64,000 bases of DNA from an uncultured Verrucomicrobiae bacterium (lineage in GTDB: Bacteria > Verrucomicrobiota > Verrucomicrobiia > Chthoniobacterales > JAATET01), in the NCBI GenBank assembly GCA_963719495.1, contig CAVRCI010000001.1, positions 128,001-192,000 on the forward strand, given 5' to 3'. Within the stretch, counting starts at the first letter, position 1, and each line of letters opens with the position of its first letter. The position numbers and the translations under genes were made by a program. Positions 13,170 through 58,343 of the stretch are shown in pieces. The notes beneath the pieces are model-generated. The model saw only the letters and a list, made by a program, of their open reading frames with translations. It did not search any database and was not told the origin of the DNA.

Positions 13170-13260
13170 TGGCGGTGGGAGAGGGATTTGAACCCTCGGA
13201 ACCCTTTTGGAGTTCGCATCTTTAGCAAAGATGTGCTTTCGACCACTCAGCCATCCCACC
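13170..13260 (-). tRNA. tRNA-Ser(GCT)
   Basis: Reverse complement reads GGTGGGATGGCTGAGTGGTCGAAAGCA-CATCT-TTGCTAA-AGATG-long variable arm-GAGGGTTCAAATCCCTC-TCCCACC-G-CCA. Confidence 0.96.
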
Positions 13261-30963: not shown

Positions 30964-31073
30964 CTTTCGGACCTTCCGACTTATGTTGACTCGCTCGCTC
31001 CCGCTCGTCTCGCCCTTCGGGCTGCATCGCAGAGCTAACCCAGTCTGCCCCGAGGCTTCCCAGCCTCCGGTGC

Positions 31074-31119
31074 TCCGACTTTCTGACTTTCTGACTTTCT
31101 GACTTTCTGACTTTCCGAC
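31074..31119 (+). repeat. Octamer tandem repeat (GACTTTCT)x4-5
   Basis: ccgactttctgactttctgactttctgactttctgactttccgac just upstream of the activator start; related units at 30961-30982. Confidence 0.9.
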
Positions 31120-37962: not shown

Positions 37963-39593
37963 TCCATCAAAATCGCAAACAAAAACCCAGCCCCCAAGCG
38001 TTCCCGAATCATCGCACCCTGAATCTCACCCCCTTCGCACCCTCGCGGCTTCGCGTGAGACCCCTCACTCCAAAAGCGCGCCGTATACCGCTCCACCCCC
38101 AACTCCGCTTCCGTCGCCACCGGCCAGGGAGTCACCGCCAACTCACCCCGCCAATCCCCCATCCCCGGATTCAACCCCGCACAAGCCGCCCAGGACTCCT
38201 CCGGAGGAATTGCCAGCACCGCCAACTGCCCAGCCAGCGTCAACCGCCCAAACGCCACAAGAGGGGTCACAAGAGGGGTCAGTCCGTTCATTGGTTCAGA
38301 ATCAAAAGGCACAAAAGGGGTCAGTCCGTTCATTGCAAAAGGGGTCACAAAAGGGGTCAGTCCGTTCATTGGTTCAGCAAAAGGGGTCGCAAAAGGGGTC
38401 AGTCCGTTCATTGGTTCAGAATTGCCGTCAATCAACCATCGCGGCGCTTCCGCCAATTCCCGCACCTCCTCCGGCAGACCCTCCCGCCACCGCGAGAAAA
38501 CCGCCCCCTGGCGCTTCGCCTCCGCCTCCAAATCCACCAACTCCGCCGCGATCCACACCTCATCGTAAGATTGCGGAAACCGAAACCCCCAGCCCTCGAG
38601 ATCCGGCATCACGTTCGGCAAACGCCGAGCCACCAGCGGCTTCCCCGCCGCCGCCGCCTCCAGATACGGCAGCCCAAACCCCTCCTGCACCGAGGTCATC
38701 ACCACCGCCTCGCAACCAGCGATCAGGTCCCCAATCTCCGGCCCATCTCCACTCGCCAACAGAGAAAACCGCACCCGCCACCCCCCCCGCTCCGCCGCAC
38801 CCATCAGCGCCCGAGCGTAACTCTCCTCCTCCCGCGAACTCACCCCCGCCGTCGTCACCAACCACCCCTCCGGCCGCAACCAACGGTGAAGCAGCACCGC
38901 TTCCGCCAAATTCTTCCGCCTCAAAAACCGAGTCGCCGCCACCCAAACCGGCCCATCATCGCCCAGCAACTCCCGCAACCAACCCGCGGAAGAACGGCCG
39001 CCACCTCGTCCTACCGCCATCACCGGATTCGGCAAAAGCAAGCTGCCCTCCACCCCCCGGGCATCCTGCCCATTGATCACCGCATGACGCAAAGCCGGCG
39101 AAAAAATCACCCGCCCCACCTCCGCCAGATCCGTGACCCCGGCCTCCGTCATTTCGGCCCACCGCCCCCACCGATTTTCGAACCAAAAGTCATGGTGATG
39201 CGACACCACCCGCCGCCCCCGCTCCGCCAGAGCCACCACCTCCCGAGCCAGCAGAAGATTCCGCCCCAACCCCAGATTGTGAACCCACACCACGCACCCC
39301 CGCTCGCAGATTCCCTCCAAATCCGGTCGCACCACCTCCCCCTGATCCGCCGAATACCCACACCCCGCAGCCACCACCACCTCCAGCGCCACGTCCCCCA
39401 GAGCCGCCCGCAACCCCGCCACCCACTCGTCCGCTCCGCCCTCGCCAACCAGCAAAGTCACCCGCCGCACCCCACCCGCCCGCGCCAGAGCCGGAAGAGC
39501 CATTTCGATCACCCGCCGCACCCCACCCGGACGCAAATGATAATGCATGACAACGAAATGGCCCGAAAACGGCTTCATTCCACCATTCACCAT
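37959..39593 (-). CDS. GT4-like glycosyltransferase carrying an in-frame repeat expansion
   Basis: HYHLRPGGVRRVIE, HHHDFWFE, RFLRRKNLAE and TSVQEGFGLPYLE; internal (SEP)MNGLTP repeated four times. Confidence 0.8.
   Translation of the reverse strand: MVNGGMKPFSGHFVVMHYHLRPGGVRRVIEMALPALARAGGVRRVTLLVGEGGADEWVAGLRAALGDVALEVVVAAGCGYSADQGEVVRPDLEGICERGCVVWVHNLGLGRNLLLAREVVALAERGRRVVSHHHDFWFENRWGRWAEMTEAGVTDLAEVGRVIFSPALRHAVINGQDARGVEGSLLLPNPVMAVGRGGGRSSAGWLRELLGDDGPVWVAATRFLRRKNLAEAVLLHRWLRPEGWLVTTAGVSSREEESYARALMGAAERGGWRVRFSLLASGDGPEIGDLIAGCEAVVMTSVQEGFGLPYLEAAAAGKPLVARRLPNVMPDLEGWGFRFPQSYDEVWIAAELVDLEAEAKRQGAVFSRWREGLPEEVRELAEAPRWLIDGNSEPMNGLTPFATPFAEPMNGLTPFVTPFAMNGLTPFVPFDSEPMNGLTPLVTPLVAFGRLTLAGQLAVLAIPPEESWAACAGLNPGMGDWRGELAVTPWPVATEAELGVERYTARFWSEGSHAKPRGCEGGEIQGAMIRERLGAGFLFAILME
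38256..38423 (+). repeat. Tandem array of GGGGTCAG-type element ends inside a CDS
   Basis: Four copies of AGGGGTCAGTCCGTTCATTG (three extend to GTTCAG), three preceded by a 12-bp CAA(A/G)AGGGGTC(A/G) stutter. Confidence 0.92.
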
Positions 39594-42066: not shown

Positions 42067-45000
42067 ATGCCTAAAGACACCACCATCCAGAAGATCCTCC
42101 TCATCGGCTCCGGCCCCATCGTCATCGGTCAGGGCTGCGAATTCGACTACTCCGGCGTCCAAGCCTGCAAAGCCCTCAAGGAAGAAGGCTACACCGTCAT
42201 CCTGGTCAACTCGAACCCGGCTACGATCATGACCGATCCCGAGTTCGCCGACCGCACCTACATCGAGCCCATCACCCCCGCCATCGTCGAAAAAATCATG
42301 GAGCGCGAGAAGCCCGACGCCCTCCTCCCCACCCTCGGCGGCCAGACCGCGCTCAACTGCGCCATGGACCTCTTCCACAACGGAGCCCTCGAACGCCACG
42401 GCGTCAAAATGATCGGAGCCAACGCCGAAGCCATCCGTCGCGGCGAAGACCGCCAGCTCTTCAAGGACATCATGGTCGAGATCGGCCTCGACATCCCCGT
42501 CTCCGGGACCGCCCACACCATGGAACGCGCCTGGGTCGTCGCCGAAGAAATCGGCCGCTACCCCCTCATCATCCGCCCCGCCTACACCCTCGGCGGCTCC
42601 GGCGGCGGCATCGCCTACAACCGCGACGAATTCGAATCCATCGTCCGCCACGGCCTCGACCTCTCCCCCACCACCGAGGTCCTCATCGAAGAATCCCTCC
42701 TCGGCTGGAAAGAGTTCGAAATGGAAGTCATCCGCGACCGCGCCGACAACTGCGTCGTCATCTGCTCCATCGAAAACTTTGATCCCATGGGCATCCACAC
42801 CGGCGACTCCATCACCGTCGCCCCCATCCAGACCCTCACCGACAAGGAATACCAGGCCATGCGCGACGCCAGTTTCCTGATCATCCGCGCCATCGGCGTC
42901 GAGACCGGCGGATCCAACATCCAGTTCAGCGTCGACCCGAAAACTGGCCGCATGATCGTCATCGAAATGAACCCCCGCGTCTCGCGCAGTTCCGCCCTCG
43001 CGTCCAAGGCCACCGGATTCCCCATCGCGAAAATCGCCGCCAAGCTCGCCGTCGGCTACACCCTGGACGAACTCCAAAACGACATCACGCGCGAAACCCC
43101 CGCCTGCTTCGAGCCCACCATCGACTACGTCGTCACGAAAATCCCCCGCTTCACCTTCGAGAAATTCCCCCGCGCCGACGCCACCCTCACCACGCAGATG
43201 AAAAGCGTCGGCGAAGCCATGGCCATCGGCCGCACCTTCAAGGAGAGTTTTCAAAAAGCCATCCGCTCCCTCGAGATCGGCCGCTTCGGCTTCGGTGCCG
43301 ACGGCAAAGACAAGCCCATCGACCCCGAAGAGCTCGACCGCCTGCTAAGAGTCCCCACGGTCGACCGAATCTTCGCCATCCAAGCCGCGTTTAGCGCGGG
43401 CTACACGGTCGACCAGGTTCACAACCTGTCCAAGATCGACCCCTGGTTCCTCCACAACCTGAAGGAGATTTCGGATTTCGGATCTCGGATTTCGGATTTG
43501 AATTCTCTCAGCTCACCCAATCCGCAATCCGCAATCCGCAATCCGCAATCGCTTTTGCGTCGCGCCAAGAAGCTCGGCTACTCCGATCGCCAACTAGCCA
43601 CACTCACGGGAGAATCCGAAGCGACCGTTCGTGAGCGACGTAAAAGCCTCGGCGTCATCCCCACCTACCGCTTGGTCGACACCTGCGCCGCCGAGTTCGA
43701 AGCCTACACCCCCTACTTCTACAGCACCTACGGCGACGAAAATGAAATCCGCCCGAGCGAAAAGAAAAAGGTCATGATCCTCGGCGGCGGCCCCAACCGC
43801 ATCGGTCAAGGCATCGAATTCGACTACTGCTGCGTCCACGCCGCCTTCGCGCTCAAGGAAGAAGGTTGGGAAACCATCATGGTCAACAGCAACCCCGAAA
43901 CGGTCTCCACCGACTACGACACCAGCGACAAACTCTTCTTCGAACCCCTCACCCTCGAAGACGTCCTCAACATCTACGAAGCCGAAAAGTGCGACGCCGC
44001 CATCGTCCAATTCGGAGGCCAGACCCCGCTCAACCTCGCCGCCGACCTCCAAGCCAACGGCTGCACCATCATCGGCACCCAACCCGCAAGCATCGAAAAA
44101 GCGGAAGACCGAAAGTTTTTCGCCGCCATGTTGGACAAACTGGGTCTCCAACAAACCCAAGGCGCCACCGCCACCACCGAAGACGAAGCCGTCAAGATCG
44201 CCACCGAAATCGGCTACCCCGTCCTAGTCCGCCCAAGTTTCGTCCTAGGCGGCCGAGCCATGGAAATCGTCTACGGCGAACAGGACCTCCGCCGCTACAT
44301 CGCCAACGCAATAGCGAGCGAAATGAACATCAGGGGGAGCGCGCCCGTCCCGGGTGCGAGTTCCGGCGTCCCCGCCGGAACCACGGCGGAGCCGTCAAAC
44401 GGGGGCGAGGGCGTCCCGCCCTCCACGACAGCCAACCCGGCAAAGCCGGCACTTTCCTCCTCCCGCCCAATCCTCATCGACCGCTTCCTCGAAGACGCCA
44501 CCGAAATCGACGTCGACTGCATAACGGACGGCATCGACTGCGTCATCGGCGGAGTCATGGAGCACATCGAGCAAGCCGGCATTCACTCCGGCGACTCAGC
44601 CTGCGTCATCCCATCATTCTCCCTTTCCTCCAAGATCCTCACCGAGATCAAAGAAGCCACCAAGTCGATGGCCAAAGAACTCCAAGTCCGCGGCCTCATG
44701 AACGTCCAGTTCGCCGTCAAAGACGAGCAACTCTACGTCATCGAAGTCAACCCGAGAGCCAGCCGCACCGCCCCGTTCGTGAGCAAAGCCATCGGCGTCC
44801 CCCTCCCCAAGCTCGCCGCCAAGATCATGGCCGGCAAGACCCTAAAGGAACTCGGCTTCCTCGAAGAAATCATCCCGCCGCACTTCAGTGTAAAGGAAGC
44901 CGTCTTCCCCTTCATCAAATTCCCCGGCACCGACATCACCCTCGGACCGGAAATGCGATCCACCGGCGAAGTCATGGGCATCGACGCCGACTTCGGCCTC

Positions 45001-45441
45001 GCCTACGCGAAAGCCCAGATGTCCGCCCAACCCGCCCTCCCCGAGAGCGGCAACGTCTTCCTCAGCGTCCGCGACAGCGACAAACCCGCCATCGTCCCGG
45101 TGGCCAAGGAATTCATTAGCCTAGGCTTCACCATCTACGCCACCGCCGGCACGGCAACGGCCCTCAACGGGGCCGGAGTGCCGACGAGCCCAATCTACCG
45201 CCTCAGCGAAGGCCGCCCGAACGTGTTGGACATGATCAAAAACGGCGACCTCCAATTCATCATCAATACGCCCAGCGGCCAGCAGCCCCGCCTGGACGAG
45301 ATCAAAATCCGCAGCGCCGCCACCGCTGCCCGCATCGCCACCATGACCACCGTAAGAGGAGCCCAAGCCTCGGTCGCCGCCATCCGTTCGCTCAAAGAGA
45401 AGCAACTCGAAGTGAAGAGCCTCCAGGAATACCACGCGTAG
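42067..45441 (+). CDS. carB: Carbamoyl-phosphate synthase large subunit with two repeat-derived segments
   Basis: [69 protein letters not shown] and a C-terminal MGS domain. Confidence 0.98.
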
Positions 45442-45514
45442 GGAAAAGACAAATGCAGGGCCTCGCGCAAAGCCACCAAGCCGCGAAGAATACAGGAATC
45501 AATCCAAACGCCTC

Positions 45515-45735
45515 ATGTTGAGAACTACGAACGCGCAAGCGAGTCAAAAACCCGGGGATGACTCGATCAACGGCAACGAAGCCCATTCTTCCAAATCTTT
45601 GCGACCTTTGCGGCCTTCTGTTCAAAGCCGCATTTGTATCCGCATTCCTCTTTGTTCTCTTCGTTCCCTTTTGTTCAAAACAGCCCATGTCATCGGAAGC
45701 AAAGCGAAACACCTCCGGCTTTTCAGGACTGACAT
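45515..45735. repeat. Composite intergenic repeat, copy 2
   Basis: Colinear with 7749-7960. Confidence 0.85.
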
Positions 45736-45841
45736 GACCGCTGCCCAAGAACGAGACGTCCACATTCAGAACCGGCCCCGACAAAAACCTCGGAATCACT
45801 CTCTGAATTTCCGCGCCCCTGCGTGAGAAAATCAGGCCACC

Positions 45842-46377
45842 ATGCTCTCTGAACTCGATATCGTCCGCGACGTCTCCACGAAGCTAAGCGCGACCGGTAT
45901 TGAATAAATGCTCACCAGCTCGATGGCGATGAACTACTACGCCGAGCCGCGCATGACCCGGGACATCGACATCGTCGTCGCGCTCGTCCCGTCAAACGCG
46001 ACGACCATCGTCCGCTTGTTCGATCCGGACTACTACGTCTCGCCCGACGCCGTCGCCGAATCCATTCGCGACGAGTGGATGTTCAATCTGATCCACAACG
46101 AGAGCGTCATCAAAGTGGACTGCATCGTCCGGAAATCGACACCCTACCGCCGCGAAGAATTCCAACGACGCCGACAAATCACCGCCACCGACTTCTAAAC
46201 GTGGATCGTCAGCAAAGAGGACCTCAATCCTCTTTAAACTCGCGTGGGCTAAAGATTCGAAATCCGACCGCCGGCTTCAGGATGTCCGAAACCTCATCGC
46301 CAGCGGATACGATGACTCAATCACCAAACGCTGGGCGCAACCGCTCGGTGTCGATAGCCTTTGGCGATCATGCCTGA
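45842..46377 (+). pseudogene. Decayed nucleotidyltransferase-like gene
   Basis: MLSELDIVRDVSTKLSATGIE*MLTSSMAMNYYAEPRMTRDIDIVV; stops at 45905 and 46196, plus an apparent frameshift after SKEDL. Confidence 0.8.
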
Positions 46378-46627
46378 GCTGAGCGACACCCCGCCCGAGA
46401 TCGCCGCCATGGTCCGCGAGCGACTGATGGCCCGCTCCGGAGCCGAGAGGTTCGAAATGGGCTCCCGAATGTTCGACGCCGCCCGTCAGATGGTCCTCGC
46501 GTCGTTTCCGACGGACATATCCGAGGAACGCCGTCGCCAACTCCTCTTCGGGCGCATCCACGGGAAGTCATTGGCCTCGACGCAAGTTCCCGGCAGCCAC
46601 CCATACCAGCCAAATGTGTCAATATGA
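46370..46627 (+). CDS. Small hypothetical partner protein of the NTase module
   Basis: SDTPPEIAAMVRERLMARSGAERFEMGSRMFDAARQMV; the 3' end runs into the repeat at 46612. Confidence 0.6.
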   Translation: MPELSDTPPEIAAMVRERLMARSGAERFEMGSRMFDAARQMVLASFPTDISEERRRQLLFGRIHGKSLASTQVPGSHPYQPNVSI

Positions 46628-46641
46628 ATGACCGACCCCTT
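46612..46641 (-). repeat. GGGGTC-type element end (family B)
   Basis: aaatgtgtcaatatgaatgaccgacccctt; positions 46613-46641 are the exact reverse complement of 52324-52352. Confidence 0.92.
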
Positions 46642-47609
46642 TCCGTGCCGCTGGGCATGTTCAGCGAAAGAGACCGCTTCCAGGACGGGACCGCGTCCTC
46701 GACCGAAGTGAACCGCAGGACGCCGCTCGTGGTAAAGTCGCCCCGTTGCACTTGGCCGCTCAAACCAACGTGAGCAACGCTCCCGGTCTCCCCGGAGAGC
46801 TCGATCACCCTTGCCTCCACCCGGGGGGCAACGAGCGAACCTCCGCCGAGCGCGAAACTGGCAGAGCCGATCACCGTGACGTTCTCGCCGAGCGTGACCT
46901 GCGCCCGGCCGTTTCGACCCAGATCGACGGAGAAGTCCCCGGTCTGGATCGCGCCATCCACCCGGACCTTCGAATCACCATCGGCCCGGATCCCGACCGA
47001 ACCGAGCGAGAACCAGCTAGACTCTGGCTCGTCGACAAAACTCACGAGCGAGCCCGCGAGCTGAACGTTGCTGGGACCGCCGCCCCGGAAGTCGAGGTCG
47101 ATCGTGGGCGACCGGATGTTGCCCGTGACCGCCATCGATGATCGTGCGTTCAGTCGCACGGCGAATGGGGACGAGAGGTCGCCACTCAAGCGGACGGGGC
47201 CGTCGGTCGAGATCTCGAGCCCATCGCCCGAGATGGAGGCCTTGAAGTCGAGGCCTCCTTCGTCTCGGTGGCCCAACTCGACGAATCCCCCCGGGGCAAT
47301 CTGTAGTTCCGTTCCCCGTCGACCGAACTCGAGGACATTCTGCTGACTGTAGACCGCCAGCGAACGAAGCGTCAAAGCGGCGGGGAGATCGATCACGGGC
47401 CGAGGCTCGTGCCGCGACGGAAAAACCCCGACGAAGGCGTCGGCGGTCGGGCCGTTCGGGACGGGGCCAAACCATTTCGCTGGCTCGTTCCACTCTCCCC
47501 CGCCGGAGGGCCGCCACGTCGAGTTCTGGGCGTAGGCGCCGATGGAGCCGACCAGTGCGACGACGAAAAAAACAACGTGACGCAAACTTCGGGAACGGAT
47601 GATCGGCAT
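46642..47609 (-). pseudogene. Secreted beta-rich (autotransporter-passenger-like) protein truncated at an element end
   Basis: Signal peptide, then TWRPSGGGEWNEPAKWFGPVPNG and Gly-rich beta strands. The frame runs into the repeat (ERGRSFILTH) and has no sorting domain. Confidence 0.6.
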
Positions 47610-47769
47610 ATCTTGGAAGCAACCCCGTGGTCTCACACGAGACCCTTCGATGCAACCCAAATCGCGTCCGAAGTCGGAATCGCGACCGAAGATTGGCCCC
47701 GCGCCCGCGCGCGGCTTCACACCGAGGTCAGGCGGCGACCTTGGCTGGAGGTGGTGATCCTACCCAACA

Positions 47770-47997
47770 GGAGGGGTCGAGGAGGGGTCGGTCATTCATA
47801 TGGGCAAGGAGGGGTCGGTCATTCATATGGGCATATCGAGAGGCTATATCTGTGATCCATTGCGAGGCAAATGTGTCAATATGAATGATCGACCCCTTCC
47901 GACGACGTCACACCAATTATCGAAAATGTGTCAATGTGAAGGACCGACCCTTTTGACGCCATTCATGATCGACCCCTTCCCTGACCGACCCCTCCCC
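47770..47997. mobile_element. Non-autonomous MITE-like element cluster with family-B inverted ends
   Basis: Left ends GGGGTCGGTCATTCATAT at 47784 and 47811 (27-bp tandem) plus a stub at 47773; right ends at 47869-47898, 47923-47952 and 47961-47997. Confidence 0.8.
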
Positions 47998-48096
47998 GAG
48001 CCCTTCCCCCTTCACACCGGGGAGAGATGGGAAGTCGTGAGAATCGATGCGCCGATGCCTTGACGGTATGAGAAGACTTCGATCAAATCAGTTTCG

Positions 48097-51000
48097 GTGA
48101 AAATTATCGCTCGAGGACATGAGGCGCTTACAAATCTTTCTTGGAAGCGAAAAAGTTCCCATAAAAATCAGAGCAGTTTGGGAATCCTATCGACTTCTTC
48201 GTGCAGGTGTTGGGTTTTCGCGCTGGTGTTCGCTCTGGTTGGAGTAAGTCCTGAAACCGGACTGGGGGAGGCTAAGACCGTTTCCGCAGGATATGGGCAG
48301 TCGCACTCTCTGTTCATCAAAGCTGATGGGACTCTCTGGGGGATGGGATCTAATGGGCGCGGTCAACTCGGTATCGAATCCGCTGCCGATCAGCATTCTC
48401 CTATTCTGATATCAGAAAATGTTTCGGCAGTTTCTGCCGGACATTATTACACCTGCTTTATCAAAACCGATGGAACGCTTTGGGGATGCGGAGCGAATGA
48501 ATCCGGTCAGCTGGGAGATGGCACTTTGGAGGATAGGTTAGTGCCGGTATTGGTCGCGACCGATGTGGTGTGTGTGGAGACACTTGAATTCAACACATTC
48601 TTCATCAAATCTGATGGCACCCTGTGGGCTCATGGCAGAAATTCCTATGGAGAGTTGGGTGACGGAGCATCGAGTAATCAATCAACTCCAATCCTCATTG
48701 CGTCTGATGTGCTGTCTGTCGCCCAGGGAGGGAATAGCTTTTACGGTCCTTACGTCCTATTTATCAAATCTGACTCCACGCTCTGGATGATGGGAGCCAG
48801 CTTTTTTCCGGGTCAGTTTGGAGACGGTTCAATGCGACAAAGGCCCGAGTTGGTGACAATTGATGTTAAATCTGTTTCGGCAGGGGGCGAGCACTCGGCA
48901 ATTTTGAAGACTGACGGCTCGCTTTGGACGGTGGGTGCAAACTATTATGGTCAGCTCGGGGATGGGACGTTGACTCGCCGGACATCGCCTACGCTCATAG
49001 CGACTGGCGTAGCGTCTGTCTCAGCCGGAGGATTGGTAACGTTTTTTGTTAAGAATGATGGGACGCTCTGGGCGGCAGGACCTTATGACGTAGAAAATAC
49101 GCTGGATTTTTATTATGGCAGTCTGGAACCCAATCCCAACTTGCGGATGGTAGCGTCGGATGTCTTATCCGTCAGCGCAAGAGATCCGTATTTCTTCATC
49201 AAAACCGACGGACGATTGTTCGGTATGGGCCATAACTGGCGTGGCAAACTTGGAGACGGCACGACCACTTTTCGATCGACTCCGGTCCTCATTACCGGAA
49301 GTGTTTTAACTAACTCGCGCCGTGCCACCGTCGCGAGCGTAACGCCCAATCCTGCCCCGCTTCAAAACGCCAAACAACTCGTCACCATCACCGGCAGCGG
49401 CTTCGAGCCGGATTGCGGCGTCACTCTCCGCGACCATCGCGCGGGAATTGTGTATCCGAACCGGACGAAGATTTCGCAGACCGGGGACACGGAGATTGTT
49501 CTGAATCCGAACTTCGGCGCGATCCCCGCGCAGTGGAGTGTCGAGGTGATCAATCCGGACGGGCAATCTTCGGGCGTCCACCGCTTTCAGGTTGGTCAGC
49601 CGGTTGTTCCCGGCGACACCATCCAATCGTTTCAGATTGTTGCGGCTGACGCCGCCTCGTCGGCGGTCGGCACGGGGGATTTCAAGCTGGCGACCACGTC
49701 CGCCTCGGCATCGAGTCTGCCGTCGAGGGTCTTTCGAGCCATCGCGACATTCTTCGATGGGTCCATCGCCGATCTCACCAACAGTTCGAGCTGGAGAGTG
49801 ACGGGGGATAGCCGGGCAAGCGTGGATCATGGGACGGTGAGTCTGGGGCCGGGCGCATATGCGACTTCTCTGAACTTGTCGGCGAGTTTTCAGGGAAGTG
49901 ATGGCGGACTGTATGCGACCCGGGAGGTGACGGTGGTCCCGCCGTTCGTCGTCGGAATCTCCTCGGAGATTGGCGAATTTATTCAGACGAACGTGACGTT
50001 TTACGCCACATCGCCCGGCGTGAGCGGGTCGGCCGTGTCGCATGCTTGGACCCGCGATGGGGTTGTCCAGTTTGGCAGTTCCGACTCCATCAACTTGAAT
50101 CTGACAACCGGTCGGGAATATCTGATTGGAGTCACGGCAGCCGACCGGGATGGGCGTGAGGACAGCGACTACATCTATTTCTCGCTGAACCGCACGGCGT
50201 TGCTCGAGCCGACCACCAGCCTCGCGGTCAACCCGAAAGAGGGATCGCTTTTGGACTCCAACGAGTCTGTTGCGCTATTTAACAGCACCGCGAAGAAGGC
50301 GCGCGGTGTGGCTGTGATCATCCATGGACTGACCGATACGGCGTTCACCCAAATTCCCAATGAGTTGGCTTGGCCGGCGCGGATGGCGAAAGCCATCGAG
50401 GCGCGACTGAGCGGCTCGGTTCCCTACGTCGTGATGTATGACTGGAGCAATATGGCGAATCCGAACCGTTTCCGAGGGGGGGACCGGGGTTTCGGCATAC
50501 TTCCTGATACGGTGGGAGGCTATCTCGACAACATCCTGTCAATCCGAGCCTACGGTCTTGCCCAGGGAAAGGTGCTCGCTGATTTGCTGATCGACGCCGC
50601 CGAGGAGGGTCAACTCGACCGGACAAAGCCGGTGCATTTGATCGGTCACAGCGCGGGCGGCTTCGTAGCAGGCGAATGTGGATTGGGTCTGAAGAGAGCG
50701 GGTTTCAGCAAAGTGCAGGTGACGATGCTGGATACGCCAGCGGCGGACGAAAAGCCGTTTCGGAGTCGAGGGTCCGGGTTTCGTTTGGAACGCTACATCG
50801 CCTGTCAGTTCAGCGGGGCTCCCCCGAATTACCCGCCGACGTTGTATCGCACGATTGGGGCAAACAAACTAGAAGTTTGGAACCGCGATTTTGAGAGCTA
50901 TCGGCGCGATATTTCGAACTCGAGTGGGAATTCGACTCCCGCGTTTGCACAATATTCGCTCGATTTGAAGCTCGCGCCGGATTCCTTCTACCATCGCTAC

Positions 51001-52026
51001 GTGATCGATATCGGATCATCGAACTTTCTGGAGCAGCACAGCTACGCGCACGAGTGGTATACAGCGTCAATCGGAGAGTCGAAGCCCCAAGAGGCTGGGG
51101 GATTTGATTACTCGTTGTTTCTCCGCGATGCCGATTTTCCCGGAGCTGTTGTTGGTCAATCTTTGAAGACGGCGTTTGCTGATGGAGAAGGCTCGGTGTC
51201 GCTGAGTTTGGCTGCACCGCTGACGCCGCTCATGGGCTTCATGACGTTCGGACAGGTGACGGAATCGGGAGAGATTTTTACGCTCACCGAAGAATCGAAC
51301 TCCGGCGTCTTTTTGGATACGACGCTTCCGGCGGAGGTGGAATCCCTGCTTATCACCTACAAGTGGCGGAACATCGGGGATGGCGATTTCCTCAGCGTCC
51401 ATTGGAACGACGAACCGCCGTTGGCGGTCATTCCAGCCGTGAGGGCGGAGGCGCACACGGAGATCGAGTTCGAAGTTCCTCTCGCCTCCTACGCTGGCCA
51501 GACGGGGCGGCTGACGGTCAAGTTAATCTCGCGTAATGAGCGGAACGCGGAGGTTGAGTTGAGCGGGCTGATGTTTCAGACGAGTGACGATGCGGATGGC
51601 GATGGGCTCTCCGCTGCCGAGGAGGAAGCTCACGGGACCGATCCGCAGAAGCCCGACAGCGACGGTGACGAGCTGCCGGACAACGTCGAAATTTTAACCA
51701 CTCTCACGGACCCGCTTTCTCCGGATACCGACGGTGACGGGTCGTCGGACTACGACGAACTGATGGCCGAGACGGATCCGCGATCAGCCGCGTCGGTGCT
51801 GCGCATCACGTCGTTTTCCAGAGTGACTCCTAATCGAACCGAGGTTCGCTGGTCATCGGTCCCCGGCAAGAGCTACCGGGTGCTGCGAGGCGATAGTCCG
51901 CGTGGAGGCACGTATCGGGTGATCGGGCGGGAACTGGCTGCGACGGGCGGTGAGATGATCTTTAGCGATGACACGTCTGACGCTGCAGAACGCGGCTTTT
52001 ATTGGGTCGAATTGGAGCCGTTTTGA
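48097..52026 (+). CDS. Large secreted mosaic protein: RCC1 repeats + Ig/IPT-like + alpha/beta hydrolase + DxDGD repeats + C-terminal domain
   Basis: About seven FIKxDGTLWxxGxNxxGQLGDG repeats; IIHGL and HLIGHSAGG nucleophile elbow; DADGDG/DSDGD/DTDGDG; ends WSSVPGKSYRV...GFYWVELEPF. Start uncertain. Confidence 0.85.
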   Translation: MKIIARGHEALTNLSWKRKSSHKNQSSLGILSTSSCRCWVFALVFALVGVSPETGLGEAKTVSAGYGQSHSLFIKADGTLWGMGSNGRGQLGIESAADQHSPILISENVSAVSAGHYYTCFIKTDGTLWGCGANESGQLGDGTLEDRLVPVLVATDVVCVETLEFNTFFIKSDGTLWAHGRNSYGELGDGASSNQSTPILIASDVLSVAQGGNSFYGPYVLFIKSDSTLWMMGASFFPGQFGDGSMRQRPELVTIDVKSVSAGGEHSAILKTDGSLWTVGANYYGQLGDGTLTRRTSPTLIATGVASVSAGGLVTFFVKNDGTLWAAGPYDVENTLDFYYGSLEPNPNLRMVASDVLSVSARDPYFFIKTDGRLFGMGHNWRGKLGDGTTTFRSTPVLITGSVLTNSRRATVASVTPNPAPLQNAKQLVTITGSGFEPDCGVTLRDHRAGIVYPNRTKISQTGDTEIVLNPNFGAIPAQWSVEVINPDGQSSGVHRFQVGQPVVPGDTIQSFQIVAADAASSAVGTGDFKLATTSASASSLPSRVFRAIATFFDGSIADLTNSSSWRVTGDSRASVDHGTVSLGPGAYATSLNLSASFQGSDGGLYATREVTVVPPFVVGISSEIGEFIQTNVTFYATSPGVSGSAVSHAWTRDGVVQFGSSDSINLNLTTGREYLIGVTAADRDGREDSDYIYFSLNRTALLEPTTSLAVNPKEGSLLDSNESVALFNSTAKKARGVAVIIHGLTDTAFTQIPNELAWPARMAKAIEARLSGSVPYVVMYDWSNMANPNRFRGGDRGFGILPDTVGGYLDNILSIRAYGLAQGKVLADLLIDAAEEGQLDRTKPVHLIGHSAGGFVAGECGLGLKRAGFSKVQVTMLDTPAADEKPFRSRGSGFRLERYIACQFSGAPPNYPPTLYRTIGANKLEVWNRDFESYRRDISNSSGNSTPAFAQYSLDLKLAPDSFYHRYVIDIGSSNFLEQHSYAHEWYTASIGESKPQEAGGFDYSLFLRDADFPGAVVGQSLKTAFADGEGSVSLSLAAPLTPLMGFMTFGQVTESGEIFTLTEESNSGVFLDTTLPAEVESLLITYKWRNIGDGDFLSVHWNDEPPLAVIPAVRAEAHTEIEFEVPLASYAGQTGRLTVKLISRNERNAEVELSGLMFQTSDDADGDGLSAAEEEAHGTDPQKPDSDGDELPDNVEILTTLTDPLSPDTDGDGSSDYDELMAETDPRSAASVLRITSFSRVTPNRTEVRWSSVPGKSYRVLRGDSPRGGTYRVIGRELAATGGEMIFSDDTSDAAERGFYWVELEPF

Positions 52027-52080
52027 AGCGGAACCGGGGCCGGGAGTATTGGCGCTGCCGCACGGTTTCCTGGAAGAGAA

Positions 52081-52137
52081 GGGCCGGGAATGGGGTCAGG
52101 GCCGGGAATGGGGTCAGGGTTCAACTCTTGACAGATT
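52081..52137 (+). repeat. GGGGTC-type element end (family D) with 18-bp tandem duplication
   Basis: gggccgggaatggggtca x2 followed by gggttcaactcttgacagatt. Confidence 0.8.
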
Positions 52138-52149
52138 GCGACGGAATAG

Positions 52150-52290
52150 CCCGATCAAACACCGGGATCTTCCCGACACTCTCACGCGCGAACGCCTTTT
52201 CGCCCTCGAGCCGACGCACCTACTTTCGGCCTGCAACGCTGTCTACCTTGAACTCACCGACCGCTTCCGGTGTCCTCTAATTACGGCAGC
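52150..52290 (+). pseudogene. Remnant of a PIN-domain (VapC-like) toxin C-terminus
   Basis: ERLFALEPTHLLSACNAVYLELTDRFRCPLIT resembles the VapC 'LSAYDAxYLELA..xxPLxT' motif, with the catalytic Asp lost. Confidence 0.5.
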
Positions 52291-52307
52291 CTCAAAACCC
52301 CGGCAAT

Positions 52308-52497
52308 GGGGGTCAGGGCAAGAAAGGGGTCGGTCATTCATATTGACACATTCAAGACTGAGGTCAGGCGTCAATTTCTCCCGGTGGGACGATGGAAGAA
52401 GGATAAGTCATTCATTTTGACGTATTTCCCCTTCGCGGATTGGAGATCGAGCCCGTCGATATGCTCAGATGAATGATCGTCTCTTGCTCGACCCCTT
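52308..52497. mobile_element. Non-autonomous element with family-B ends
   Basis: gggggtcagggcaagaaa then GGGGTCGGTCATTCATATTGACACATT (52326-52352); degenerate copy at about 52400-52427; degenerate right end atgaatgatcg...cgacccc at 52469-52495. Confidence 0.7.
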
Positions 52498-52611
52498 CTC
52501 CGTGACTCTGGTGGCCGGTGCCCGGCTGAAGCAGCGAAATCCCCGCAAGGTCGAGCCGCGTCCGGCCAATCCTCGAGCCTTCGGCGGAGCGAACCCACTT
52601 TTGACCGAACG

Positions 52612-53844
52612 TCAGGCCGTCCGGTCAATGCGCATCGGCACCCACCGTACGTAGGTCCCCATCCTCCAGAACCATTCCATCGGACCGTAGCGGAAAATCC
52701 TCAGCCACCACCCCGACCACATCAATTGCAGGCCCACAATTCCTCCCGCCACGGCCATCGTAGTACCGACCCCCATCGTGCCGTAATACCCCAGCCCGTA
52801 GCTGTAGAACACCCACCCTGCCACGAGGCTTTGGAGCAAGTAATTCGTCAACGCAGTCCGCCCCACTGCCGCCACCGCGTGAACGCCCCGACCGCCGCGA
52901 GTTCCCCAATGCATCAGCCCCACCAGATAGCACCACGCAAGAGCCGTCGCAGCGGGAAACCCGACCAAGCAATAGACCGCCCACCACACCCTTGAATCTG
53001 GTCGGAAGGTCGAACCCCACGCCGCTATCGCGCTTCCAATGATGGCCAGAGCGAGCAGGCGCCCCAGCCCCCACTGCTTCCACTCGCTTCCATCGGGGAA
53101 CCAGCCCGTTCGCACCGCGTCATACCCCAAGACCACCAAGCCCAGAGAGAACGGCCAGAAGACGATCGTCATCCCCTGCATGACGAGCGCTTCAAAAAAC
53201 CGAACGACGACGATCTCGCCAAAGTCGCCAGCCCGATAGGCCTCGTCCAACTTCTCAATCTGTTCACCGATGAACTGATCGAATTCGGGATCTTCCTCAG
53301 AGGGGATTGCCGCCATCGCCGCCAGCCCAAGCACGACGAGCACCAGACACGCCCCCGCCAGAACCCGTCGCCCCCCGGCACCCAGCTTGCGGACCAACAG
53401 CAACGCCAACCCCAACGAAGCGTATGCGCACAAAATGTCTCCCCACCACAAAAACACCATGTGCACGAGACCAATGAGAAACAGCACGACCATCCGCCGA
53501 ACAACCAATCGCCTGATATTCCCGCCCGCCGCCGCCAACCGATCCTCCTGCCACGCCAAGCCCGCACCTAAAAAAAACGCCAAGATCGTCACGCACTTGC
53601 CGACAACCACCACCTCGAGCGCAAAACTCAACCCCAGCACAACTCCCAATGACTGCTTCGGTGGCTCACTCAGAAACGCCAGATAAAAGTCACTCGAAGC
53701 GAATCCCTGGATATTGGCGAAGATCAACCCCAGCACCGCCGCGCCGCGCGCGACGTCCACCCCCACCCGTCGAGTCCCCGCAGGCACCGGCATCACCTCC
53801 GGCAACGGAGGCGGCAACGAATCCGTTCCATCGTTTTCTCTCAT
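52612..53844 (-). CDS. DUF418 (YeiB-like) membrane protein
   Basis: VDVARGAAVLG, WWGDILCAY, VGRTALTNYLLQS and FRYGPMEWFWR. Confidence 0.9.
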   Translation of the reverse strand: MRENDGTDSLPPPLPEVMPVPAGTRRVGVDVARGAAVLGLIFANIQGFASSDFYLAFLSEPPKQSLGVVLGLSFALEVVVVGKCVTILAFFLGAGLAWQEDRLAAAGGNIRRLVVRRMVVLFLIGLVHMVFLWWGDILCAYASLGLALLLVRKLGAGGRRVLAGACLVLVVLGLAAMAAIPSEEDPEFDQFIGEQIEKLDEAYRAGDFGEIVVVRFFEALVMQGMTIVFWPFSLGLVVLGYDAVRTGWFPDGSEWKQWGLGRLLALAIIGSAIAAWGSTFRPDSRVWWAVYCLVGFPAATALAWCYLVGLMHWGTRGGRGVHAVAAVGRTALTNYLLQSLVAGWVFYSYGLGYYGTMGVGTTMAVAGGIVGLQLMWSGWWLRIFRYGPMEWFWRMGTYVRWVPMRIDRTA

Positions 53845-53947
53845 CAGTTTGAACTCCGTGATCGCTTCTCCCGTTCCTTCACCCTACGACGCTCCGCTCT
53901 CAAAACGGTATCCAATTCCGCATTCCGCAACTTATCAGATTGCAATT

Positions 53948-55080
53948 GGGGTCAGTGTGCAAAAACGAATTCTCAGTCCCCGGCATCTATGCGATGCACC
54001 CACTGGACAAATTCTTCCGGCACCTTGCGCAACCCATTCGCTGAATCCGAAATTCGAAGCTGCTGACCTGCGTTGGCCGCGCTTTTCATTTCCAGTCGAT
54101 CCGCGATCCACCCCAACGACGCCGTCGTCCGCTGGCGAATGACTCGCGCCAACTCCACTTTGCGCGGATCACTCCCCATGATCCCACGAAGATCCTCCTC
54201 ACGGAGGCCCGCCGCCCGAAGCCCCCCTTCCGCCAGTTCTTCCGCCTGCTGCAACCCATGAGCCAGCCGCTGGGGAGTGCGCTGGTAGGCTCGCGAGGCT
54301 GGCTTGTCCACCTTGCCCTCCAGCATCTTCCTCAATCTCTCCGCAAACGCTTCACTTCCCCAATACCATCCCCGGCGCAAATGACTCATTCGCGCATCGA
54401 AGTGCTCCGGCACCGCAACCAACCCACTTTCCTTCTTCTCCTGCAAACCCCGCCGGTCCAAGTGCTCCACCATCTCGCGCCGACCGGCCACCGTGTCCGA
54501 ATGCCCCAACCTTCTCAACCCGTCAGCGGCAGCAAGCCACTTTGGGCGATTCATCGGTTCCAAAGCGTACCCTCCAGCCACGCTGCTCCAGCGGTAATCG
54601 AGAACGCTGCCACCCGATTCGATCTTCACAAGACCCGCTCGAATCGGGTTGAGGTGAATGTAATCCAGTACCTTGCCGTAGTATCCAACCTCATCCCCGT
54701 CGATAATCACTGACTTATAGCGATCCCCAAAGACACGACCCCACACGCGATGCCGCAGGTTGAACCTTCGCGTATAAGTATTTTGAACCCACTTCATACC
54801 CTCCACCAGGTTCGGCTCCGGCGTCTCGATCAACAGGTGGTAGTGATTACCCATCAACACCCAACCGTGAATCCCCCATCCGGTCCGCCCACAGACTTCC
54901 GAAATCACCTCGAGGAAGAATCGACGATCATCGTCGTCCTCGAAAATTGCCTCCCGCCGGTTACCACGTGCCATCACGTGATAAAACGCGCCCGCGTATT
55001 CCAATCTCAAACTCCTCGCCACCCGCTAAACAAAGACCGCAAGACGGTATACGGTCAATTGCTTTTTGCACACTGACCCC
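53948..55080. mobile_element. TIR-bounded Y1/HUH transposase element (TIR-associated RAYT type)
   Basis: Left end GGGGTCAGTGTGCAAAAACGAATT (53948-53971) and right end AATTGCTTTTTGCACACTGACCCC (55057-55080): 22/24 inverted match closely enclosing the transposase. Confidence 0.9.
53973..55022 (-). CDS. REP-associated-type tyrosine (Y1, HUH) transposase with C-terminal HTH extension
   Basis: MARSLRLEYAGAFYHVMARGNRREAIF, LMGNHYHLL (HUH), YIHLNPIRAG (catalytic Tyr) and YRWSS; C-terminal SLGWIADRLEM. Confidence 0.93.
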   Translation of the reverse strand: MARSLRLEYAGAFYHVMARGNRREAIFEDDDDRRFFLEVISEVCGRTGWGIHGWVLMGNHYHLLIETPEPNLVEGMKWVQNTYTRRFNLRHRVWGRVFGDRYKSVIIDGDEVGYYGKVLDYIHLNPIRAGLVKIESGGSVLDYRWSSVAGGYALEPMNRPKWLAAADGLRRLGHSDTVAGRREMVEHLDRRGLQEKKESGLVAVPEHFDARMSHLRRGWYWGSEAFAERLRKMLEGKVDKPASRAYQRTPQRLAHGLQQAEELAEGGLRAAGLREEDLRGIMGSDPRKVELARVIRQRTTASLGWIADRLEMKSAANAGQQLRISDSANGLRKVPEEFVQWVHRIDAGD

Positions 55081-57250
55081 CTTTTCCCTGACCCCCTTTT
55101 CCCTCGACCAACCACGCAATATCGTTCGCGTCCAACACCGCCCACCGGTCCGAAGCCAAATGCCAGATGTCTTTTGTCTGGAGGCGATCGTCATTCAGCA
55201 CGCACTTCGCGAATACTCGGCGCATCTCGACGTTCTGAAGCGCCCGACCGACTACCGACCGGTCCGAATCAGTGGCAAAAGGCAGATAGTTCCGACTCTT
55301 CGAAAGCCACACCTCGACCGCGAGAGCCGCAATCTCCGGCACGTCGAGATGATCCAGAGCCTTCGCGAACGCTTGCCCGGCCAATTCCTCCCGGCAATTC
55401 AGCGAATCGAAACAATGCGTCCACTCGATGCACTTCCGGAGCAGAGGGACGAGGTCTTCCGTCCGCACGTGCCGCGGTAGAAGATCAGACAGCACGCGCC
55501 GGTAACTCCCGAAATAGTTGTTTGCTCGCAGAGCGTGGATCGCTGGAAGCGCGTCACTCACGGACCAAATCGTCGGGACCAAACGCGCGAGAGCATCGCC
55601 TCGGATGGAATCTTGCGGATCGTTGCCCACGGTCCCTTCAGCCAGCGGAATCAACTCCGCGAGTCGCTCCTCCGGAACACTTGCGCAAAGAGCATCCGCC
55701 GCAGCTTCGCGAATTTGCTGCGATTCGTCCGAATCGCGCAAAACCTCGAAGTAGTCATCGCAGAGCTCAGGGATCTGACACGCCTCAGCGATGTCGAACG
55801 CGACACGACGCGCGATGATCCCATCCGACCGACTGCGCAAAACCGGATGGATTTGCTCGGCCAATCCAGGATGCGACAACCGTTTGTAAAAAGAGCGATA
55901 CTGCCCGTCGTCGAAAATTTCCTCGCGGCGGGCGCCAGCAAGAATTGCGTCCACCAACTCGCGCTTAAACTCGCCGTTGATTCGCGCGATGTCACTGCGC
56001 AACAGAATCTCTGGTTCGATTTGGAGGAGGTGACGTAAAAAATCCGCGTGGCCTCCCGCAATCCACGCTGCCAACTCGGCCAATTGGGGTGCCACGTGTT
56101 CTCGACCGGCATCCCGTCGACAAAGGAGTCGACGAAGCTGAACGGTGGGAAGCTGAACAAGCCGCAGGGCAGCCAGGCACTCCGCAACCGTTTGATGAAT
56201 AAAGACAAACCGTCCCTCCCCCACGCCGGTGAAAAGGGCTGTTTCGACCACATGGCTCTGAGCAGCCTCAACAACAAGCTCGCGGGAGAACGATTCATCG
56301 TCCAGAAGCCCGTCAAGTCTCACGACTGACCGGCCACTCAGCAGCATCACTGCAGCAAGATTGGCAGCGGACATCAGGCGCTCATCCTCCGTGGGGATGG
56401 CCATCGTCTTACTTCTGCGCCGAGTCAGGCTGGCTCGTTCCAGACTATGCTCGGCATTCAGACGACGCACGGCACTTTCGTAAAGCTCGCGGTGTGACCA
56501 GTCCGTCACCGATCCCGATTGAAATTCTTTCAACAAAAACGACAGCGTCAGCGGTCGTGCCGCCATCGGAGCGACCTGCGCACGATACGCCGCTTCAACG
56601 AACTCATCCGCATTGATCTCAAACGACTCCGCTGCGCTCCTCGCGTCAACCTGCCGAAGAGGGCAGAGCTCCGGGACCAAACGGTCTTGAGGATCTATTT
56701 TCCAAAGATCGAAAAACTCTGATTCCGCCGTGACCGGCCACTCGGCGATTCGGCAGGCCAGCACAACTTTCAGCCGAGCAACCGGGTATCCGCGTAAGTC
56801 GGCAGTAAGCGATTCCACCAACTTGGGTGCTTGGATCATCCCTTCGTCGACGCTGTCGACGAAAAGAGTCGCTGTTTCAGACTCATTGCCAACCCAACGG
56901 TGCCACGAAGGACTTCCAAAGACTTGGTGCCGGAAATCTGCGTAGTCGACGATCTTCAATAGGTTTGCTTCGACGACGATGTCACCACGTTTCTCGTGAG
57001 CCTCGCGAAGTCGCTGCAACTCTGTTGACTTGCCCATCGCCGGCTCGCCGCAGAGAACGATGGGAGCCGTTTCGAACAGCAGCGCGTCCGTGGCACGCAG
57101 GTGTTGGTTAGCTTGAGTCCAAACAGAATCCGACTCCGGATCATCAAGGAAGGCTTCACCGAATCCGCATGAGATGCTTTCCCCACGACGGCACCAGAAC
57201 CGCCGCCAATTTAGAGGTTCTCCGGAAAATAAACGATAATCGGTAGGCAT
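55055..57250 (-). pseudogene. STAND/NACHT-type NTPase with helical repeats, 3'-truncated by the transposase element
   Basis: Walker A GEPAMGKS, Walker B LFVDSVDE, VLACR, RPL and FIHQTVAECLAA. The ORF ends GKGGQGKGGQCAKSN, which is the translated element end. Confidence 0.75.
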
Positions 57251-57319
57251 ATCCGGGAAGCGGGAAATCGTTCGGTGGAGTTACCACTATTCCAATCAAC
57301 TCTGTCCATCCCGTAGAGG

Positions 57320-57645
57320 CCTCGATCTCGGCTACAACCGGAAACCGGTCGCCTTCACCGGCGACCCCACAACCAACACCCGCCTCGTCCCCGAGATCCG
57401 CGTCCTCTGGCAGCACGAATTCTTCAACAACAGCCGCAACATCGGCAGCGCGCTTGACGCCCGGATCCGGTCCCGGCTTCAACACCAGCACCTCCTAGCC
57501 CGGCCGCGACAGCGTCTTCGCGGGAGCCGGCGTCAGCACCCAACTCGGCGACCGCTGGAATGCCAGCGTCTATTACAACGCCGACTTCGGTCGCCAGGAC
57601 CTCACCAGCCACAGCGTCAGCGCCAGCCTCGGCTGGAAGTTTTAG
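57320..57645 (+). pseudogene. Autotransporter beta-barrel C-terminal remnant
   Basis: PEIRVLWQHEFFNNSRNIGSALD, a frameshift, then GFNTSTS*PGRDSVFAGAGVSTQLGDRWNASVYYNADFGRQDLTSHSVSASLGWKF* with terminal Phe. Confidence 0.8.
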
Positions 57646-57708
57646 GGTCGAGCTGGCATCGCTGCCCGGCGCAAACTTGATCGCCCAAACCGACCAAGCT
57701 CATTGCCC

Positions 57709-57758
57709 GGGGAGCGCGCCCGTCCCGGGTGCGAGCGACGGCGTCCCGCCGAAGCTCC
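57709..57758. repeat. REP-like element GGGGAGCGCGCCCGTCCCGGGTGCGAG...
   Basis: The first 27 nt are identical to the segment at 44334-44360 inside carB. Confidence 0.85.
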
Positions 57759-57779
57759 GGGCGGCAGCCGGTCAGCCCG

Positions 57780-58343
57780 CTAAAGCTCGAGAAAATTCCC
57801 CAGCAATCGCTTCCCCTCCGAAGTCAGGATCGACTCCGGATGAAACTGCACGCCATACACCGGCAGATCCTTGTGCCGCAACCCCATGATCTCGCCTTCC
57901 GCCGTCTCGGCGGTGATCTCCAGGCAATCCGGCAGCGTCTCCCGCCGCACGAGCAACGAGTGATACCGCGTCGCCTCGAACGGCTCCGGCAATCCCGCAA
58001 AGACGTCCGTCCCCCGGTGTTGGATCGGCGACGTCTTGCCGTGCATCAACCGCTCCGCCCGCACGACCTCACCGCCGTAAACGTCCCCAATGCACTGGTG
58101 CCCAAGACACACACCGAGCAACGGCACCTTCCCCCCGAACTCCCGAATCACGTCGTTACTGATCCCCGCCTCCTGCGGCGTGCGCGGACCCGGCGACACG
58201 CAGATCCGCTCCGGCCCCATCGCCGCGATCTCGTCGATCGTGATCTCGTCATTCCGCCGCACGACCGGCCCCGCCCCCAACTCGCCGAAATACTGAACCA
58301 AGTTGTAAGTGAACGAGTCGTAATTATCGATAATGAGAATCAT
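57780..58343 (-). CDS. trpG: Anthranilate/aminodeoxychorismate synthase component II
   Basis: [31 protein letters not shown] and GVQFHPES. Confidence 0.93.

Follow-up and report, generated by a model that had tools for sequence, protein, structure and literature searches.

Which process brings unrelated genes into a row with similar short ends between them? This question is raised by an island downstream of carB in the genome of an uncultured Verrucomicrobiae bacterium (assembly GCA_963719495.1, here G000). The island lies at about 46 to 57 kb of the window, the 64,000-nucleotide stretch G000:C1:128001-192000, to which all positions given without a contig refer; G001 to G004 are congeners. 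The labels of homologs agree with a placement in Verrucomicrobiota. A first-pass annotation had described genes punctuated by GGGGTC-led ends together with a Y1/HUH transposase, and had taken the whole for an integron-like array built without IntI or attC. According to our analysis, the island is a known kind of element at work, namely the TIRtron or TIRYT (a Y1 transposase gene between terminal inverted repeats, TIRs), and not an integron analogue. We think it probable that it represents a variable hotspot reworked by TIRtrons, the single ends of which cut, duplicate and rejoin adjoining DNA. The likeness to a cassette array would be one of appearance only, and we infer that the patchwork was made by ends acting in this way on neighbouring DNA.

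Where the ends are joined

GGGGTC-led ends are more frequent than expected by chance: G000 contains 145 matches compared with a single one in the reversed genome, and the bare 8-mer occurs 27 times in the window, where 14.8 occurrences are expected and 0/100 shuffles were as high. The ends form 115 runs, and 91/108 well-matched ends have another end within 8 kb (random mean 34, maximum 55). Two apparent end families, F6 and F7, were rejected, as they represent TIRs split by IS4-family and IS110 elements (IS, insertion sequence); their ends stay counted in the end totals and in the junction, segment, tandem-unit and clustering figures.

The outer flank of each end was compared with uncut copies of the same DNA. 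This yielded 33 rows and, after removal of three with repeated flanks and three with under 23/25 identities, 27 counted junctions. The match to the uncut allele stops 3-6 nt before the GGGG in 15/27 junctions, 2 nt before it in one, 8-24 nt in ten and 0 nt in one, the latter being a GGGGTC inside an IS sequence with the true end 4 nt off. For the relatives, 0/36 rows have a match reaching the GGGG, and orthologous comparison shows an RHS gene and glpX broken off immediately outside an end. These comparisons place the junction about 5 nt outside the GGGG (about 7-8 nt for F1, the family of the window's own transposase), with no target duplication and with the short leader carried along with the end. 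Thus, the GGGG, which had been regarded as the joining point, lies a few bases inside the physical junctions. A common target motif was not evident among the uncut alleles.

Many ends are accompanied by tandem copies: a second GGGGTC is present within 48 nt upstream of 73/143 ends versus 112/3084 other GGGGTC sites, a 14-fold enrichment. The tandem units are exact duplications of a flank suffix, the GGGGTC and a TIR prefix in 64/104 cases in G000 and 56/91 in relatives. Where microhomology is absent (25 units in G000), the flank part measures 5 nt in 14 and 4-6 nt in 20, with the inner break at 0 to 19. Considering single families, 5 nt fits 25/28 of the F3 tandem units, and 7-8 nt fits best for F1 in relatives (19/33 each). 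No junction dinucleotide is common to the tandem units; duplicates anchored at an end can also be larger, about 0.3 to 1 kb. As read from these scars, joining depends on no microhomology and on no particular dinucleotide. A long run of tandem F3 ends is further found upstream of the array, at 38263-38420, with no partner end or enzyme nearby.

Could assembly artefacts or slippage at G-runs have generated this pattern? G000 is a draft genome, and the contigs of three public sequencing runs provide no record across the island: none spans it, and no joint at an end is found among the matches listed, while one run contains near-identical pieces of the transposase, the NACHT gene and trpE at low depth; no RNA data set was listed with a match. 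We nevertheless regard an artefact as highly improbable. The same tandem-copy and end anatomy recurs in five congener assemblies and in unrelated metagenome contigs, the F1 TIRtron is single-copy in G000, and both the enrichment of tandem copies over other GGGGTC sites and the 25 units without microhomology speak against slippage.

At 25 junctions (24 counted or near-counted rows plus one), the interrupted target could be traced further. Its continuation is lost within 12 kb in 13 of them and met only as a duplicate or repeat in the remaining 12; simple insertion, in which the partner end would be succeeded by the second half of the target, was seen in 0/25, including junctions inside multi-copy ISs. 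A search for empty sites of 36 two-ended units mapped both flanks in five, none of them with an end-free contiguous site. The two outcomes named beforehand as refuting the array idea, breakpoints unrelated to the ends and simple insertions, were both looked for and neither was seen.

Gene truncations at ends affect the RHS gene, glpX and the NACHT gene of the window. The latter stops at residue 716, compared to 1371-1387 aa in its closest homologs (48-53% identity); its missing C-terminal half was not found in the 98.6%-complete G000 when searched with four full-length homologs, and the gene itself was not found in five congeners. Of the two genes said to be cut at an end, NACHT is indeed cut, whereas the other, encoding a secreted protein, lacks its stop codon only. 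Since no longer homolog of this protein appeared among 8000 candidates (weak evidence in itself), the case for a cut is here confined to the missing stop.

Part of the evidence would also fit ordinary two-ended transposition, i.e. peel-and-paste via a single-stranded circle closed just outside paired TIRs, with later host recombination or deletion in a neutral hotspot giving rise to truncations and solo ends. Whole TIRtrons recur with both ends: the F1 unit has 97% identical copies at two unrelated G001 sites, a genome in which carB is 83-86% identical, and a 73% copy in G004. An 86-bp dimer of F4 TIRs behaves likewise; its four copies have end-specific leaders in common, and no target-site duplication was found at these mini-element copies or at the TIRtron copies. 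As a single strand, the dimer has a strong fold (z -4.9), several island borders are located away from ends, and simple insertions are under-sampled. Such transposition does not account for the 0/25 simple insertions or for end-anchored tandem copies without microhomology, nor would random deletion at a later stage put the breakpoints at a constant short spacing from the end. We therefore consider it unlikely, albeit worth keeping in mind, and favour one-sided joining by single ends.

The transposase unit and its relatives

The element at 53948-55080 consists of a transposase gene (53973-55022, minus strand, 349 aa) between 24-bp TIRs that are 92% complementary. The arms at 53948 and 55080 each open with GGGGTCAG, which fits the GGGGWSAS consensus. 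The transposase motifs NHYH and YIHLNP are near-invariant among 117 homologs, and the protein reaches 44 bits with the Y1_Tnp profile (cut-off 23). In an alignment-based structure model (predicted local distance difference test, pLDDT, 87), the HUH core resembles TnpA-REP (PDB 4ER8; Z 16.4, root-mean-square deviation, rmsd, 2.1 over 157 residues), and residues 258-349 resemble DnaA domain IV with Z 8.1 and 7.7 (rmsd about 3.2, 86-87 residues), where a Z near 8 for a helical domain represents moderate support for this likeness. Pfam hidden Markov models did not detect the C-terminal DnaA-like domain. Based on motifs, TIRs and predicted fold, the unit is assigned as a complete TIRtron/TIRYT of family F1, TnpA-Y1 subclass 2.1.

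A RAYT-like Y1 transposase between terminal inverted repeats is a known kind, as the first-pass annotation had stated. Y1 genes between GGGGTC-led TIRs were named TIRtron or TIRYT by Di Nocera et al. 2013 (PMC3733652), and equated with TnpA-Y1 subclass 2.1 by Quentin et al. 2018, who report TIRYTs in about 15% of the bacterial species sampled (PMC6006769). The same kind is RAYT group 1 of Bertels et al. 2017, the most IS-like true RAYT group (PMC5581495). A preprint tied subclass 2.1 to prochlorosin diversification and then dropped the causal claim. Our elements share with the family, as these sources portray it, the Y1 gene between GGGGWSAS TIRs, the presence of multiple paralogs in one genome with a separate TIR for each, TIRs that occur singly, as dimers or in clusters, the NH[YF]H and Y[IV]HLNP motifs, a DnaA-C-like tail and the lack of repetitive extragenic palindromes (REPs). 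No difference in membership is apparent from these portrayals, to which the cut position, the carried leader, a target analysis and mobility evidence are added here.

G000 encodes six full-length transposase paralogs with five different TIR sequences, and each TIRYT has its own TIR family; solo, dimeric and clustered TIR repeats all occur in this genome. The ends of the window had been treated as one set. They belong to three families (F4, F2 and F1), of which only F1 matches the local transposase; F4 and F2 are sister TIR families with transposases elsewhere in the genome, the one matching the solo F2 end at 52092/52110 being located on contig C9. In several families, the inner part of the TIR shows a TTGAC motif shortly upstream of the transposase start (54975-55060 in the window and the left ends of other TIRtrons), which is possibly a -35 box; a promoter scan did not call this motif (2 sites vs 3.2 expected). 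Folding of single-end stretches (n = 6) gave z values between -1.8 and +0.8, with no significant hairpin in 4/5 single ends tested. Because single ends are not significant hairpins, recognition probably occurs by the DnaA-like domain on duplex DNA.

REPtrons, represented by TnpA-REP of E. coli, have an HUH core and 5'-phosphotyrosine chemistry in common with the TIRtron (PMC3333891, PMC8266576). Their REPs are described as GTAG-footed hairpins cut between C and T at variable distance, and the E. coli REPtrons seem not to move as units, whereas here single ends form no significant hairpins, the break distance is fixed, no common dinucleotide is seen and the whole unit moves. Membership in the REPtrons (RAYT groups 2/3) was rejected on account of the TIR flanks, the lack of hairpins and of a common dinucleotide, and a score of 62 bits with NF047646 (below the cut-off of 80). 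IS200/IS605 elements, defined by a short TnpA, a Y---Q motif and subterminal hairpins, were rejected as well, as the protein has 349 aa and the YIHLNP motif and scores 19.8 bits with NF033573 (cut-off 55). IS91 elements use a larger Y2 enzyme. They are similar in having an HUH enzyme, no target duplication and one-ended events that join or carry adjoining DNA, but their two ends, ori and ter, differ from each other and their target is a tetranucleotide (PMC13181058). With symmetric TIRs and no evident common target motif, the present element was not placed among them, although the one-ended behaviour is shared.

Two kinds of IS are found inside the ends. All five full IS110 copies found by motif (G000 C2:757361-758953, C4:310010-311601, C9:184106-185697, C14:87229-88821 and 89216-90808) lie at one position inside TIRtron ends; two further single IS110 ends do likewise, and congeners show the same placement. 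Judged by this placement, IS110 here targets TIRYT TIRs. An IS4-family element and its mini-copies are often inserted in TIRs, the start of which appears duplicated over 11 bp (IS4-family copies at G000 C2:753488-757249, C6:139299-143170, C7:41479-43360 and C13:505712-507629), and other IS4-family copies occupy similar sites outside TIRs. The orthologous solo ends at G000:C2:393306 and L069:4257 (G001) have a common position and leader and different TIR families. Read outward, the TIR provides a start codon (ATG) that is in phase with the adjoining reading frame, and a similar TIR-started open reading frame (ORF) is present at L006:8234.

The island after carB and the cassette question

The order and positions of the parts had been described correctly, with every listed part found at about its place. 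A broken nucleotidyltransferase-like gene (45842-46382, plus strand; weak AbiEii match), which encodes 179 aa and is intact in congeners, where it also follows carB, is overlapped by a small partner gene (46370-46627, plus), the last codons and stop of which are provided by a TIR. This solo F4 TIR (46612-46644, minus) comprises the end proper at 46612-46639, with the GGGG at 46639, and a carried leader of about 5 nt. The secreted-protein ORF (46645-47609, minus) reaches this end without a stop; it has no DNA-level match in four congeners, and its database matches are unnamed clusters. The following segment had been annotated as a miniature inverted-repeat transposable element (MITE) at 47770-47997. 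Paired ends are indeed present at 47773-47992, but the mini-element proper is the 86-bp F4 TIR dimer (47811-47896; three more genome copies at 91-93%), preceded by two tandem partial copies of the adjoining F4 end (47773-47810, plus) and followed by decayed and partial extra F4-type ends (47897-47997, minus).

Further downstream lies an intact gene of 1309 aa (48097-52026, plus, 56.5% GC) with RCC1-repeat, IPT, alpha-beta hydrolase and TSP3 parts. The solo F2 TIR (52092-52135, plus; GGGG at 52110) includes one tandem partial copy and is followed by a VapC (PIN) remnant (52150-52297, plus), corresponding to aa 76-124 of a 137-aa congener PIN protein at 69% identity. The second presumed MITE, at 52308-52497, has its ends at 52309-52495 and turned out to be a decayed hybrid of two families: on the left an F2 stub is joined to an F4 end, and on the right a degenerate F4 end is found. 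An intact DUF418 (YeiB-like) gene (52612-53844, minus) precedes the TIRtron. On the other side of the TIRtron, one tandem partial end copy and a leader of about 7-8 nt (55081-55103, minus) form the junction with the 5' half of the NACHT gene (55104-57250, minus), which is EruA/HyoA-like and far under NCBIfam cut-offs; PADLOC returned nothing for the NACHT or the RCC1 protein. The right border of the island is a 3' remnant of an autotransporter-like gene (57320-57645, plus), which is complete beside trpG in G001; no TIR end is present at this border.

The stretch after carB is a hotspot throughout the genus: G002, G003 and G004 differ here in their TIR ends, ISs, nucleotidyltransferase pairs, vapBC and defence-like genes. 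vapBC is found in this hotspot of two congeners, while only the chopped remnant is left in the window, and the nucleotidyltransferase gene upstream of the partner gene is itself broken. The carB-trpG interval could not be aligned across relatives because the two genes are not neighbours in congeners, where they are on different contigs or about 450 kb apart. The only tRNA of the window, at 13170, offers no attachment site for the island, and metagenome and genome-collection scans retrieved distant relatives only. Several synteny breaks against congeners coincide with ends.

Other features of the hotspot include a carB insertion (44274-44464) that is absent from congener alignments and contains a 39-bp repeat also present at 57709. 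In G003, carB-like sequence followed by a nucleotidyltransferase pair occurs on two contigs (L005:16415-18001, L006:16963-18245), with a different hotspot after each. Two dispersed repeats are unrelated to TIRs: one of about 90 bp (30984-31077) has dozens of copies across the genus, and one of about 160-210 bp after carB (45513-45725) is abundant.

Are the genes between the ends mobile cassettes? In an integron-like platform, a cassette bounded by outer ends would be cut out and stacked anew, with the solo end that follows the carB-linked gene pair as a possible fixed site of joining. As had been observed, three cargo genes lie between outer ends; two of these are intact, with about 65-115 nt separating them from the ends. 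Ends are also often joined into other ends. Segments of 300 bp to 8 kb between neighbouring ends were cut from G000 and the fetched congener loci. None of 23 outer-outer segments recurs with ends on both sides and three recur without ends, while inner-inner units (TIRtrons) recur with both; this test used other species instead of strains and loci near ends, which limits what it says of rare cassette movement. Across these sequences, the inward-facing unit, be it a TIRtron or a TIR dimer, recurs at new sites and the DNA between outer ends does not.

The cargo genes themselves point in the same direction. DUF418 homologs show no family end in 6/6 loci scanned from six relatives; in G002, a 75% identical copy adjoins a HAD-like phosphatase gene in an end-free context, whereas the HAD-like gene of the window is 30 kb away. 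For the RCC1 gene, no close copy was found among 300 genomes of the order searched. The orientation of neighbouring ends is mixed genome-wide (12 outer-outer, 9 inner-inner and 22 same-direction), many framed genes are cut, and the leader moves with the end and not with the cargo. Integrons are similar only superficially, with genes parted by short repeats in a variable locus. No IntI is present in the region, and a simple pattern scan of 45400-57800 yielded no convincing attC; the sole attC-like pattern falls within the transposase gene, with a folding energy of -6 kcal/mol compared to -26 to -29 for sites on contig C2. The true integron of the genome is located there (G000:C2:169995-177349), with an integrase over the TIGR02249 cut-off and two attC-like sites; the 160-195 kb around it are free of TIR ends. 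Another IntI-like gene, at C1:371896, scores slightly below this cut-off.

On contig C13 (G000:C13:659487-663080 and 679150-698469), same-direction runs of solo F4 ends are interleaved with nucleotidyltransferase/HEPN and other small genes, among them toxin-antitoxin-like ones, which counts in favour of a platform; these runs are near glycosyltransferase genes, and the pieces are in other order in G001. A fixed receiving site could further be suspected in the same-facing F4-like end after the partner gene, found at four loci in three genomes (decayed in G002, twice in G003) with different outer DNA in each. This end is the best remaining hint of an anchor, yet the inner 40-90 nt are not the same in the four ends, three of which are decayed. 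Considering all this evidence, we judge an integron-like platform very improbable: what stands of the proposal that ends stack unrelated DNA is that they are joining sites at which synteny breaks, and the array itself finds no support, given non-recurring segments, end-free DUF418 relatives, chopped resident genes, a right border without an end and several further island borders in relatives that lie away from ends. A bolder variant, in which TIRYT ends are sequence-blind DNA ligation points and a chromosome-anchored solo end repeatedly joins its 5' leader to the 3' ends of incoming foreign DNA, also appears doubtful to us. If true, hotspots would acquire genes with no need on that side for an integrase, a target site or homology, an HUH capture route parallel to integrons.

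Proposed one-ended joining and its consequences

Under the favoured reading of a hotspot reworked by TIRtrons, the enzyme would bind the TIR as double-stranded DNA via its DnaA-IV-like domain, nick the strand reading inward at a set distance 5' of the GGGG and keep the 5' end as a phosphotyrosine. A free 3'-OH would release this held end, such that each end is joined alone and no target is cut. Should polymerase extension of the nicked strand itself supply the 3'-OH, the outcome would be a tandem copy of about 11 bp to over 1 kb; should it come from a nascent strand or a break elsewhere, an adjacent deletion or a translocation would follow. HUH enzymes are described as leaving a 5'-phosphotyrosine and a 3'-OH able to prime synthesis or attack the adduct, and nick, extension and rejoining have been proposed for the tandem amplification of bacterial interspersed mosaic elements (BIMEs) by TnpA-REP (PMC8266576, PMC3333891). 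Repeated rounds could trim DNA up to genes worth keeping, and intact genes would therefore be tightly framed by ends while other genes are cut. IS4-family and IS110 elements, as well as other ends, would in turn be drawn to the ends, by which the hotspot may be fed.

Several observations weigh against this reading. Ten of the 27 offsets amount to 8-24 nt, and only 64/104 tandem units in G000 and 56/91 in relatives follow the simple duplication rule. Only 5/36 two-ended units had both flanks mapped, the other 31 did not, and the uncut alleles stem mostly from repeated DNA and other species; since repeated DNA is over-represented among these references, clean insertions at unique sites may have escaped notice. 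Next to DUF418, similarity between the window and the 75%-identical congener sequence extends as far as the GGGG itself, as would be expected of a flank derived from the target. In a crude test, ends lie in host-like coding DNA in 7/108 cases compared to 108/300 random sites, and trimming under selection is a guess. Phosphotyrosine strand transfer from the end, and the strand polarity of the nick, are read from junction scars, and a mirror model (fixed 3'-OH, opposite strand, variable targets) would leave the same scars. Inner-side joining of solo ends is not explained by the model.

Our literature search, which covered few subscription journals and no supplements, retrieved no biochemical, mechanistic or mobility study of TIRYTs and no such junction data. 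The junction anatomy is the new part, and it makes the TIRYT family directly testable. The scars predict a break 5-8 nt outside the GGGG, no target motif or duplication, and that one end is enough. If this is right, published element boundaries would be short by a few bases, and TIRtrons would actively generate deletions, duplications and truncated genes in variable islands.

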